Source of the DNA: a phage
Direction: 5' to 3' (one strand)
DNA: 50,465 nucleotides
Sequence record: NC_105618.1
The first letter of the stretch is position 1. Every line of letters starts with the position of its first letter. The notes beneath the pieces are model-generated. The model was not told the DNA's origin. It made no database searches and saw nothing but the letters and a program-made list of their open reading frames with translations. Shown piece after piece: positions 26,265 to 42,217 of this stretch. The position numbers and the translations under genes were made by a program.

Positions 26265-26342
26265 AGTATAAACTCCTTAAGTAAATAGCACGAATTGCTA
26301 AGCACTGATTTTATCATTGTGGTACTGGTCTTGCAATGGGCA

Positions 26343-30406: not shown

Positions 30407-31120
30407 ATGAAAGACTTTAATGATATCGAAACAATCGACTTTGCAGAAACTGGGTGCTCATTCACTCGCGAAGCAATAGCATCAGGCGGTTATTATCAAG
30501 CATTGAAAACGCCAACCTGCAAAGAGATTTCTGGTCGTCGATACAAGGGAACAAATACGCCGGATGTTGTTCGTGATTTATGGTCAACTCCACGCGAGGT
30601 TATCGCATACCTTGAGGGTCGCTACGGAAAATATGATCTCGACGCTGCGGCAAGCGAAGAAAATAAAGTTTGCGAGAAGTTTTATTCCCAGGAAACAAAC
30701 TGCTTAAAACGTTGGTGGGGTAAAAATAAGCACGTATGGTTAAACCCTCCTTACAGTCGACCTGATATATTCGTCAAGAAAGCGATTGAGCAAATGGAGC
30801 ACAACAACCAGATCGATATTCTTTTACCTGCCGATAACTCGACTGCGTGGTTTACTGAGGCTCGACAGCACGCGGCTGAAATCATCTGGATTGAAGCTGA
30901 TTTGACTGAGGATATTGACGGCAATGAATACGCACGATCCGGTCGTCTGGCTTTCATATCAGGTGAAACTGGAAAAGCAGTAGACGGCAACAACAAAGGT
31001 TCGGTGATTTTTATTATGCGCAAACTTAAAGAAGGTGAGACGCAACAGACTCACTACATCCCAATCACAAGCATTTGCCCTTCTGTCAAAAACAAACGAG
31101 CAAAGGTGAGGAAAGTATGA
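30407..31120 (+). CDS. dam: DNA N6-adenine methyltransferase (phage Dam-type)
   Basis: DLDAAAS and NPPYS catalytic motifs. Confidence 0.8.
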   Translation: MKDFNDIETIDFAETGCSFTREAIASGGYYQALKTPTCKEISGRRYKGTNTPDVVRDLWSTPREVIAYLEGRYGKYDLDAAASEENKVCEKFYSQETNCLKRWWGKNKHVWLNPPYSRPDIFVKKAIEQMEHNNQIDILLPADNSTAWFTEARQHAAEIIWIEADLTEDIDGNEYARSGRLAFISGETGKAVDGNNKGSVIFIMRKLKEGETQQTHYIPITSICPSVKNKRAKVRKV

Positions 31121-39299: not shown

Positions 39300-39676
39300 A
39301 ATCTTTCCTCCAGGATTTCACGGATACGGTTGATTGCGTCCATCTTATCGCAATCCCAACGAGTCGTTCCGTTATCCGGTCGTTCTTCGAACGCGAGACT
39401 TACCTCTTCGAGAAGGTTGTCAATGATAGCCTCCTTCTCGTCACCGTCCAGCTTTCCGAACTCAACCGATCCTACGTAACGATTGATATAAGCGATCATG
39501 CTTTTATGCTCTTTAATGGTAAAGATATCCGTGATACTGATCCCGGTATCGCGTTGCGTGATAACAACACGGTTGCTGGGGTGGATTGTCCCGCCCACTA
39601 GGCGATTGCAAATCTCAACCGTGAAACCTTTCTCATTTGCGCTATCAATTGCTGCCTGAAGTTTTGAATCTGTCAT
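39296..39676 (-). CDS. hypothetical protein
   Basis: track ORF; CCAATCAGAGGA leader. Confidence 0.45.
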   Translation of the reverse strand: MTDSKLQAAIDSANEKGFTVEICNRLVGGTIHPSNRVVITQRDTGISITDIFTIKEHKSMIAYINRYVGSVEFGKLDGDEKEAIIDNLLEEVSLAFEERPDNGTTRWDCDKMDAINRIREILEERL

Positions 39677-39707
39677 CTCGTCATTCCTCTGATTGGTTGA
39701 TGTGTTA

Positions 39708-39750
39708 AATATACCCCGATTACCTTCGGGGCGTTTAGCAATTCGTGCTA
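39708..39750 (-). promoter_or_regulatory. palindromic-motif promoter module
   Basis: minus strand TAGCA-N5-TGCTA, 22 nt, TATATT in hairpin CCCCGAAGG...CGGGG. Confidence 0.45.
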
Positions 39751-40086
39751 TTAAGCGATATCGAACTCAGCGGCATATGCTTTCTTGAAGCCAGCTTCAC
39801 GCATGGTGCGCTTGCTGATTTTGCGCGGGAATTTGTACTGGCTGTTGGGTTTAACCCACCAAAAACAGGCAGTTTCACGAACGATTTCATATTTACCGTA
39901 ACGGGTGAAGATGTCACGTTCAGCGTCAGGCTGATAAATACAGGTCAGGAATTTAGCTGCATTTTCTTCAGTTTTGATTTCTTCCCATACGAAGGAATCC
40001 ATACCGTTAACTTTGCAAGCTACCATGATGTACTCAACGCCGTTTTCGATTTTGATGATTTCGTTACCGCGATTTTCGTATTTCAT
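39751..40086 (-). CDS. hypothetical protein
   Basis: track ORF with upstream promoter module. Confidence 0.45.
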   Translation of the reverse strand: MKYENRGNEIIKIENGVEYIMVACKVNGMDSFVWEEIKTEENAAKFLTCIYQPDAERDIFTRYGKYEIVRETACFWWVKPNSQYKFPRKISKRTMREAGFKKAYAAEFDIA

Positions 40087-40124
40087 TTTCCTGCCCCTGA
40101 TGTGTATCTCGTTTCGATGAGGTA

Positions 40125-40167
40125 ATTATGCCAAATCACACCGATCGAGTTTTAACAAAAAGTGCTA
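40125..40167 (-). promoter_or_regulatory. palindromic-motif promoter module
   Basis: minus strand TAGCA-N5-TGTTA, 22 nt, CATAAT; overlaps 3' end of methyltransferase ORF. Confidence 0.45.
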
Positions 40168-40865
40168 TTTGCAATTGCTTTGAAAAATCCACGTGGCGAC
40201 AGCGATCGTATCAACTTCGTTTTGGCAGACTTGCCGCCCAGCTTGTTATGCTGCGCAGAGTACCCGTCAGGCAGGCTTACTGGCTTTCTCTCCGGCATGA
40301 CAAAATCGTCCGAGGTCCAAAGACACGTCTTTTTCGGATAAGCATCGCGCGGCGCAATATACATCGGGAACCAGGGGTGCGAGTCATTCTCAGGAAGGTA
40401 GCCGCCATACTCCCAGGGATTGAATGAGTGATCTGGTTTTCTCCAGGCAGATGACAGAACGCTAACCGGATTCTCAATGATGTAAGTCACGCCCAGGGCA
40501 TCGCCAATATTCGCAGCAATCCGGGCGGTGGCAACAGCCTTCTCCTGGAATAACGGATCACGCTCACGCTTACTTGCAAAGTGCGCAGCGCCACTAACAG
40601 CTAGGTCAGTGCATGGAGGAAAGGCCATGATTAAATCCGGCTTGCCATACACACCAGCGATAGCATCACGTTCGAACTTCTCATCAATGAAGACGTTCAC
40701 ATACTCAATGTTCGGATGCTCTACCCTGGCATTGTACTTTGCATAATCTCCGTGATCTGCCCCGTCAAAGTTGAATCACATCACCTTATGACCTCGCTTT
40801 GCCAGTTCATGACCAGCAAGGCCGGAACCGTCGAATAATGACCAGATTAATTTCACTTGTTGCAT
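40152..40865 (-). pseudogene. DNA cytosine-5 methyltransferase-like gene interrupted by in-frame TGA
   Basis: N-terminal 29 codons (LFDGSGLAG, motif I-like) end at in-frame TGA about 40776-40778; downstream frame continues with AFPPC (motif IV-like) and IIENP (motif VI-like). Confidence 0.5.
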
Positions 40866-40879
40866 TCTCCTGATTAACC

Positions 40880-41014
40880 TTATCGCTTACCCTGACCGTT
40901 GCAGGCTTGGCACGTGATTCTCTGCATTTTCCAGACCCCAGGGACTTCAGTGAATAACGGAACCATGTTAAATCCACGACCAGCACACTGACTACAAACC
41001 TGTTTTACTCTCAT
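40880..41014 (-). CDS. small zinc-ribbon protein
   Basis: 44 aa with CSQC ... CQAC; in-frame ATG 41014 with CCAATCAG-type leader. Confidence 0.35.
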   Translation of the reverse strand: MRVKQVCSQCAGRGFNMVPLFTEVPGVWKMQRITCQACNGQGKR

Positions 41015-41048
41015 TTCTGCTTCCTCTACTGATTGGTTGATGACCAGA

Positions 41049-41092
41049 ACTATACCCTGCCAACATGGATAAGTCGTTAGCAAAAAATGCTA
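41049..41092 (-). promoter_or_regulatory. palindromic-motif promoter module
   Basis: minus strand TAGCA-TTTTT-TGCTA, about 23 nt, TATAGT. Confidence 0.45.
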
Positions 41093-41701
41093 TTCCAATA
41101 ATTGCTCATTATTCCATCAATAGTGGAATAGTTGGAATAATTGCGATCCCGATTGATCTCGAATGATGAAACGTGATTATTGCATGGTGTGCAACAGTTG
41201 GTTGATTTGTTGCTGAGAATGCAATGATTGTGAGAGGGAGGATTTAGTGTTACCCGGTTCGCCTGGTAGTCATCTCCATTTTTAGCAAAAAGTGCTATCG
41301 ATTACACTTTAACTTGTCACGACTGTAATATTTGTCTAGAATCGCCATTGTGACAAAATTACACACTGTGACGCCTCTAAATATACATATAGATATATGT
41401 ATCTATATAATATATATAGTGTTTTTTTTATTTATATATATAGATAATTATATTGTAATAGCTGTGTATAGTTGTCTTACATTGTCTAGCGTACTGTTGG
41501 CATATTTCTATCTGCATGTTTATATATACAGTAATTTTTTGTGAGCTATATATTTCTATAGTGACTCTATACAGCTAGACAAATGTTACACAGCTTAAAA
41601 TTGGCTCGCAGGCGTTGACATATCTGCATTGCGCTGTCACAATGGCAATTGTTGACGCGTTATGACACCATTTACACACGAATAGACAAAGAGGTTATAT
41701 T
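41084..41701. promoter_or_regulatory. AT-rich divergent control region with repeats
   Basis: about 618 bp without ORFs of 60 aa or more; shares TCTATATAATATATATAG and GCTGTGTA..AGTTGTCT blocks with 21325-21851; GGAATA(A/G)TTG repeats. Confidence 0.6.
41283..41297. promoter_or_regulatory. isolated palindromic motif in control region
   Basis: TAGCA-AAAAG-TGCTA with no -10-like hexamer at the usual spacing. Confidence 0.35.
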
Positions 41702-42217
41702 ATGAGCAATACCAATCAGGAATTAAAAATCACCGACATGATTCGACTAACCTGCGACGCAATGTATCGCGACAAAGGCATGAGTGAGTTCTCTTTCGTG
41801 GCTGATGATATGGCCCTGGAAGGCGCGCGATTCTATTTCCGCAATCAGGATGTAAGCGATAGCGATCTTGAGTCTGCCGCTGCCGGATGGGTGGACCAGA
41901 ACCAGGCGGAGGTAGAGAAGCGATTCAAGTCTGCTTTCATCACTCCGATCATCACCCGTCACTTTTGCAAATATGGCAAGGTGGCAAAGGTTAAGGTAGG
42001 CCGAAATGACGCAGCAATCACAATGATAACGGTTATCGTTACAGACGAAGAGGTTCCTGTGAAGAAGCGCCGCAGTCGGAAAAAAGTTAGCCTGGCCGAC
42101 TGCCTGGACTCGTTTGACGTTGATGTTAGTAAGATGGGCGATAGCGAGTTAATGGTTCGCGATGTAAATGAGATCGTGCGCCAGATGAAAGCGCATATCG
42201 AAAAGTGTGGACTGTGA
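41702..42217 (+). CDS. hypothetical protein
   Basis: track ORF, AGAGG RBS. Confidence 0.45.
   Translation: MSNTNQELKITDMIRLTCDAMYRDKGMSEFSFVADDMALEGARFYFRNQDVSDSDLESAAAGWVDQNQAEVEKRFKSAFITPIITRHFCKYGKVAKVKVGRNDAAITMITVIVTDEEVPVKKRRSRKKVSLADCLDSFDVDVSKMGDSELMVRDVNEIVRQMKAHIEKCGL

Follow-up and report, generated by a model that had tools for sequence, protein, structure and literature searches.

A private TGA codon at conserved Cys27 interrupts the Dcm-like cytosine methyltransferase gene of a Tunavirus genome and probably marks a recent loss of function

The Dcm-like methyltransferase gene (dcm) of the phage analysed here most probably carries a real loss-of-function allele, produced by a private TGC-to-TGA change at the conserved codon for Cys27. 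Comparison of the gene with its relatives suggests that the allele is recent and null, or at best severely hypomorphic. The window, by which we mean the whole stretch of DNA analysed (50,465 bp), aligns end to end with genomes of Tunavirus (T1-like siphoviruses, Drexlerviridae). Its best genome matches are Chapo and SA12KD, which are ~93% identical to it across the first 25 kb. The sequence begins with the small terminase gene and has the appearance of a complete Tunavirus genome. When its genes were compared with the 79 Chapo proteins and Dcm, one of the 71 comparable genes was disrupted, namely dcm. Since the other 70 are unbroken, the assembly is otherwise clean. The initial annotation of the locus had listed a recent pseudogene among several options, and this is the one that our analysis supports best.

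The interrupted gene, its family and its locus

The frame from 40865 to 40152 on the minus strand translates to MQQVKLIWSLFDGSGLAGHELAKRGHKVM, a stop, and then FNFDGADHG...AFPPC...IIENP...STFC followed by the final stop. The TGA is its only internal stop, and the frame counts 237 codons from an upstream ATG or 234 from the position at which the relatives start. The initial annotation had described a C5-cytosine-methyltransferase-like gene with an in-frame TGA, a frame otherwise open to 40152 and segments resembling motifs I, IV and VI, and all of this is borne out. The features of the locus are as follows.

40880–41093, minus strand: unit preceding dcm, with a promoter-type module (41093-41077), TATAGT (41054-41049) and a 44-aa CxxC...CxxC ORF (41014-40880)
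40863–40871, minus strand: upstream in-frame ATG (40865-40863) and AGGAG (40871-40867), 1 nt apart
40152–40856, minus strand: dcm-like C5-cytosine methyltransferase gene, 234 codons plus TAA, from the start position kept in relatives; broken at codon 27
40854–40856, minus strand: conserved start-codon position, GTG in the window and ATG in relatives
40821–40835, minus strand: motif I, FDGSG, SAM-binding loop, 5′ of the TGA; G, S and G invariant in the family
40776–40778, minus strand: in-frame TGA, codon 27 from the conserved start and codon 30 from the upstream ATG; next base T at 40775
40611–40619, minus strand: motif IV, PPC, with the catalytic Cys82, 3′ of the TGA; P80 and C82 invariant
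40467–40475, minus strand: motif VI, ENP (E128), 3′ of the TGA
40329–40334, minus strand: K175-K176, putative substrate-binding pair, from the family alignment, the K42 Dcm mutant and the KarlJaspers comparison
40154–40152, minus strand: true stop TAA, 3′ end of dcm
40125–40168, minus strand: repeat copy of the promoter-type module, ATAGCACTTTTTGTTAA (40168-40152, holding the dcm stop), with the extended -10-like TGgCATAAT (40133-40125)
40086–39751, minus strand: next gene after dcm, preceded by the promoter-type module

The product of the window gene matches PHROG 757, 'DNA methyltransferase', with an E value of 6e-84. Its homologues number 5,545, each of ~230 aa, and are present in 1,521 phage records. 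Full-length homology to the phage Dcm-like methyltransferase family (PHROG 757; the Dcm of K42 and KarlJaspers) is thereby established. Pfam gave no match to the product at E ≤ 1, PF00145 included, NCBIfam gave none, and neither did sequence and profile searches of the PDB; a precomputed PF00145 match exists for 3 of the 120 homologues listed. Because no curated sequence profile matches, the protein is placed only by fold comparison and PHROGs. The AlphaFold2 model of a 96%-identical orthologue is confident (pLDDT 91), and a Foldseek search with it returned the catalytic domains of DNMT3A/B at the top (E about 6e-8). In this predicted structure the catalytic-domain fold of C5-methyltransferases, a Rossmann-like SAM-methyltransferase core as in M.HhaI and DNMT3, is present. 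Motifs I, IV and VI, assigned from pattern and order, follow each other as FDGSG, PPC and ENP and are invariant or nearly so in the family. C82, E128, K175 and K176 show the same degree of conservation in the family alignment, and all four are encoded 3′ of the TGA.

The window protein differs from the classical C5-methyltransferases (E. coli Dcm, M.HhaI, M.HaeIII, the DNMT3A/B domain and PF00145) in being ~100 residues shorter. In addition, it has PPC in place of PCQ and ENP in place of ENV, and no target-recognition domain like that of the classical enzymes is obvious in it. The window gene is a short (~234 aa) Dcm-like C5-cytosine DNA methyltransferase gene, of a kind that Drexlerviridae share with many other phages of enterobacteria. 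The uninterrupted frame expected of this family is absent from the window copy, where TGA stands at codon 27. The broken frame makes this copy a pseudogene or null allele of the phage Dcm-like family.

The segment directly 5′ of dcm holds a 44-aa ORF (40880-41014, minus strand) with two CxxC pairs, zinc-ribbon-like, under a promoter module of its own. This segment is variable. One of six aligned relatives, UP30, has the window's version, and the others carry different ORFs with an ATGA overlap with the dcm start, a pattern that indicates a putative mosaic exchange at the junction. Elsewhere, at 30407-31117 on the plus strand, the window has an intact Dam-type adenine methyltransferase gene, 99% identical to Chapo's, so that of the two methyltransferases only the cytosine one is lost. 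The window contains 94 CCWGG sites against ~100 expected; with no depletion, CCWGG avoidance was rejected as a clue to function.

The 3′ end of dcm overlaps a promoter module, as had been noted at the outset, since the repeat copy at 40168-40152 includes the stop codon. A repeat-family search found 17 copies of this module (ATAGCAC-N5-G[CT]TAA) in the window genome, with a common layout in which it is typically followed ~22 nt later by an extended -10 of the TGn-TATAGT type, then by a Shine-Dalgarno sequence and a start codon. The copies lie on the plus strand at 26285, 30336, 42232, 42968, 44022, 45228, 46584 and 47104, and on the minus strand at 41298, 41093, 40168, 39751, 39129, 38013, 37494, 10454 and 6690. 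The module contains the inverted repeat AGCA-N5-TGCT and is located before early genes. A simple sigma-70 -35/-10 scan called no promoter at the 3′ end of dcm, owing to the ~22 nt between motif and -10. Because this fixed 22-nt distance is unlike the normal -35/-10 spacing, a regulator may bind at the module, or the module may act as an UP-like element of the extended -10 promoters. Further upstream, 41380-41560 is AT-rich, with several short direct repeats of the TATATA type and several promoter-like matches. It separates the leftward early genes from a rightward gene starting at 41702 and may be a divergent control region.

Codon 27 and the start codon in relatives

The TGA at 40778-40776 replaces TGC through a C-to-A transversion at 40776 (coding strand). 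An IMG/VR pattern scan that left the third base of codon 27 free returned 11 loci; together with UP30 and LeonhardEuler, these make 13 pattern-matched relatives, and all 13 have TGC. We gathered 27 distinct Tunavirus alleles from IMG/VR and GenBank, and each of the 26 others encodes Cys27. Among 50 aligned family members, with identities down to 57%, conservation of the residue is 90% or more. Exact-pattern scans of viral, metagenome and genome contig collections gave no match to the TGA allele, and exact look-ups of the 182-aa ORF after the stop and of the neighbouring 111-aa protein gave no record. On these comparisons, the lesion is a C-to-A transversion private to the window, and it hits a strongly constrained codon.

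Intact Tunavirus orthologues (Shfl1p86, phiL, SH6, LeonhardEuler bas13_0055 and others) are 89-95% identical to the window dcm in nucleotides and 94-97% in amino acids. They occupy the same position and have the same downstream promoter module, but they have TGC at codon 27 and an ATG start where the window has TGA and GTG. Each encodes one uninterrupted 234-aa protein whose 94-97% identity runs across the stop, and the continuity of the window frame is therefore not due to chance. In UP30, Shfl1 and LeonhardEuler the single protein runs on unbroken, with Cys where the window has its stop. The comparison with orthologues had been set beforehand as the test that could refute an interrupted gene, and it returned a single gene instead of two separate ones.

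The start codon is also changed. At the conserved position, all 22 full-length relatives compared have ATG and the window has GTG (40856-40854). The relatives begin with ATG-AAA-TTA (MKLIW), three codons downstream of the ATG at 40865, which is also found in phage UP30. The initial annotation had credited this upstream ATG with a good ribosome-binding site and a 29-codon segment. The ATG and the AGGAG exist, but the ribosome-binding site is questionable: the spacer of 1 nt is too short for efficient initiation, so that the N-terminal fragment more likely has 26 codons than 29, and the conserved start lies 9 nt downstream. The GTG change may be harmless owing to the same upstream in-frame ATG.

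In total, only four bases of dcm occur in the window and in none of the relatives: two are synonymous, one creates the nonsense codon and one turns the conserved start from ATG into GTG. The lack of any missense change suggests that the gene was long under purifying selection and was hit only recently. Nonsense changes make up 4.2% of neutral substitutions, and the neutral probability of finding both a nonsense and a start-codon change among four is ~0.002. Two expression-lowering changes in one gene are a hint of selection for less Dcm.

Alternatively, the A at 40776 might be a consensus mistake from sequencing or assembly, and the phage itself would then have TGC and a functional dcm. The TGA allele is private in every collection scanned, the exact neighbouring proteins are without record, and the gene, bar this one base and the GTG start, appears fully functional. 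Against this, the change is a substitution and not a homopolymer indel, the other comparable genes hold no stop or frameshift, as expected of an accurate assembly, and a single random error accounts less fully for the gene once its second unusual change, ATG to GTG, is considered. We regard an error as unlikely, also in view of the DELF2 genome described below.

The initial annotation had also raised UGA read-through. E. coli shows basal UGA read-through, which is higher in K-12 with its weak RF2. UGA and GTG might thus lower the enzyme level rather than abolish it, with tRNA-Trp read-through yielding traces of a W27 protein, perhaps sufficient for a degree of methylation yet too little to set off defences that sense Dcm. 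Such leakage would fit the observation that two of the four window-specific changes touch expression and leave the protein untouched, and it parallels the K42 escapers with point mutations at the ribosome-binding site. However, UGA-U is an efficient context for RF2, and TGA-T is the commonest true-terminator context here (10 of 20 TGA stops). Tryptophan would replace a cysteine at least 90% conserved, in strand β2 beside the SAM-binding loop, and no aligned homologue has it there. The RNA around the UGA (91 nt) folds no better than shuffled sequences (z = 0.14), nor do the 50 and 37 nt downstream of it (z = -0.5), and an Rfam scan of 39600-41400 gave no match at E ≤ 1. The arrangement occurs in no relative, which argues against an evolved feature. 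A leaky, attenuating allele therefore seems quite improbable to us. Programmed read-through, the designed form of the same idea, was rejected, since none of the 26 other alleles has a stop at this site and the relatives compared have TGC, the UGA lies in the usual terminator context, and neither RNA structure nor an Rfam match was found. A general reassignment of UGA or a poor assembly was likewise discarded, as TGA ends 20 of the 72 genes in the window genome and no other gene is interrupted.

A UGA aligned to cysteine is the classical Sec/Cys signature of selenoproteins, and this correspondence is the one point in favour of decoding as selenocysteine by the host SelB machinery. The sequence downstream forms no SECIS-type hairpin (MFE -6.8 kcal/mol, z = -0.5) and gives no Rfam match, Cys27 is non-catalytic, the catalytic cysteine being C82, and the allele is private to one genome. 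These observations effectively refute selenocysteine, which has practically no chance of being correct.

We give just as little credence to a split enzyme, in which the 26-29-aa motif-I peptide would work together with a C-terminal protein translated on its own. The two halves of the DELF2 allele are indeed separate 'DNA methyltransferase' CDSs in RefSeq. Against a division of this kind, the gene is a single ORF in 20 of the 27 Tunavirus alleles and in 78 of the 80 best-scoring IMG/VR loci, and the lesion sites differ among the disrupted alleles. In addition, neither a start codon nor a Shine-Dalgarno sequence follows the TGA directly. The next in-frame start is GTG at 40700, codon 56, past the SAM-binding motif, and the stretch that would be missing holds the invariant N29, D34, H35, G36 and Y38.

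A recent loss of function thus remains our preferred reading. Ribosomes would terminate after a peptide of 26-29 residues that holds motif I only, and productive restart beyond the TGA would be absent. With termination at codon 27 and no such restart, the phage would make no Dcm, or only traces of it through basal UGA leakage. The lesion itself would be recent.

Disruption of dcm in other Tunavirus isolates

The window allele is not alone. Seven of the 27 distinct Tunavirus alleles, the window included, are disrupted, each by a different lesion, and the other 20 are intact single ORFs. The disrupted alleles are as follows.

Window: nonsense, C27 to stop
DELF2 (NC_049832.1, 17231-17935): nonsense, E62 to stop, with further changes at conserved positions (F to L, P to T, P to Q)
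JMPW2: nonsense, A229 to stop
LHE71: frameshift near residue 89
vB_SsoS_008: several indels
IMG/VR isolate 2595698508: frameshift at residue 120
IMG/VR isolate 2974600923: frameshift near residue 195

The six other alleles concern the same gene, inactivated in cultured isolates as in the window, and the different sites of the lesions indicate independent events. In a control screen for broken genes, we found 1 of 70 in DELF2 (dcm), 2 of 64 in LHE71 (dcm and one more), 5 of 69 in JMPW2 and none in Chapo. The gene makes up 1.4% of the genome, and repeated hits on it as the sole broken gene are therefore improbable by chance. Of the 80 best-scoring IMG/VR loci of the family, mostly metagenomic and diverse, 78 are intact, in a sample biased to intact copies; one of the two non-intact loci is a cropping artefact. 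Host patterns were sought in the record metadata, where K-12, B and Shigella hosts do not evidently separate intact from disrupted alleles.

DELF2 resembles the window in that dcm is its sole broken gene, and this independent nonsense allele in an otherwise clean genome argues against sequencing error as the source of the window TGA. It differs from the window in its changed conserved residues, which suggest that the DELF2 dcm may be an older pseudogene. Other public Tunavirus genomes, JMPW2 and vB_SsoS_008, show error-like lesions and lend the error explanation some weight: with multiple broken genes in the former and multiple indels in the latter, part of the recurrence may be sequencing noise. 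JMPW2 (NC_041873.1; 39259-39969, 31236-32347 and 49433-49999) was isolated on the dam-/dcm- strain JM110, and its interrupted genes are Dam, the Dcm-like gene, an exonuclease-like gene and two small ORFs. Either its sequence is error-prone or of low quality, or the multiple loss is real. Apart from the seven disrupted alleles, the dcm of Eco_BIFF has an intact frame in which PPC has become HPC (P80H) and a majority-residue Gly has become Asp. This allele may be inactivated by missense changes.

More speculatively, the loss of dcm could be favoured or at least tolerated, if the phage can do without the enzyme in culture and is put at a disadvantage by it on some hosts. The costs would be that Dcm activity triggers abortive infection by retron Ec86 (Eco1) and that the enzyme is reportedly toxic. 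A dispensable and costly Dcm would account for its repeated loss in Tunavirus by unrelated lesions. Counter-selection of Dcm as the driver is attractive but unproven, and relaxed selection is the null alternative. McrBC was also considered as a driver. However, CmCWGG is not known to be an McrBC target, and the CCWGG specificity of the enzyme is only presumed. A bolder proposal is that TGA and GTG together form a selected, expression-attenuating allele, in which leakage keeps trace enzyme below the sensing threshold, and that dcm is a recurrent target of selection in Tunavirus isolates, since the enzyme would expose the phage to Dcm-sensing immunity such as Ec86. This strikes us as very unlikely; if true, 'trigger-loss' polymorphisms at the dcm locus would be present in natural phage populations.

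Implications and comparison with the K42 enzyme

For annotation, the locus is best called a disrupted dcm-like methyltransferase gene, and neither two hypothetical ORFs nor a recoding event. An accessory Dcm-like gene in phages and its role as a reported Ec86 trigger were already known, and the window adds one more instance of its recurrent loss in Tunavirus. The Dcm-like enzyme of Drexlerviridae is kept in most phages, and among the distinct Tunavirus alleles compared roughly one in four is broken, sometimes as the sole broken gene of the genome. Since the enzyme is a reported Ec86 trigger, natural null alleles can be used to test trigger loss outside laboratory selections. They also allow the worth of the enzyme to be weighed, with the protection of 94 CCWGG sites on one side and the cost of detection on the other. 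For phage therapy and host-range work, the window phage is predicted to be insensitive to Ec86 and unprotected at Dcm sites unless a dcm+ host is used for its growth. Judging from its frame, no methyltransferase activity is expected from the window allele. Production of 5mC is reported for a 56%-identical orthologue, the Dcm of K42.

K42 is a phage of the Drexlerviridae close to KarlJaspers (Bas06), and its 711-bp dcm places 5mC on the msDNA of retron Ec86 (10.1101/2023.08.16.553469). The production of 5mC by K42 Dcm was shown via LC-MS, and methylation of the msDNA activates the abortive-infection effector of Ec86 (Eco1). A C82A/E128A/K175A/K176A mutant of the enzyme is inactive. In the same study, all four K42 escapers were mutated in dcm, by a 2.2-kb deletion, by deletion of G451 with a frameshift, and in two cases by a C-to-A change at -9 (10.1101/2023.08.16.553469). 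The KarlJaspers gene is annotated in the BASEL collection as 'Dcm-like C5 cytosine methyltransferase', and the authors of that collection describe such methyltransferases as abundant in Drexlerviridae, with no simple link to restriction resistance (PMC8594841).

The KarlJaspers Dcm (236 aa) and the window product (234 aa) are 56% identical over their full length (E 2e-87), and C82, E128, K175 and K176 are conserved in the window product under the same numbering. The two genes lie in the same early-gene region of the Drexlerviridae genome. K42 and KarlJaspers belong to Hanrivervirus, whereas the window phage belongs to Tunavirus. IME167, isolated on BL21(DE3), which carries Ec86 natively, has an intact dcm, and a link between dcm loss and Ec86 is therefore not automatic. 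The window lesion, nonsense at Cys27 together with a GTG start, differs from every mutation reported in the K42 escapers. In K42, loss of dcm function is the documented route of escape from Ec86, and dcm is likewise disrupted in the window phage.
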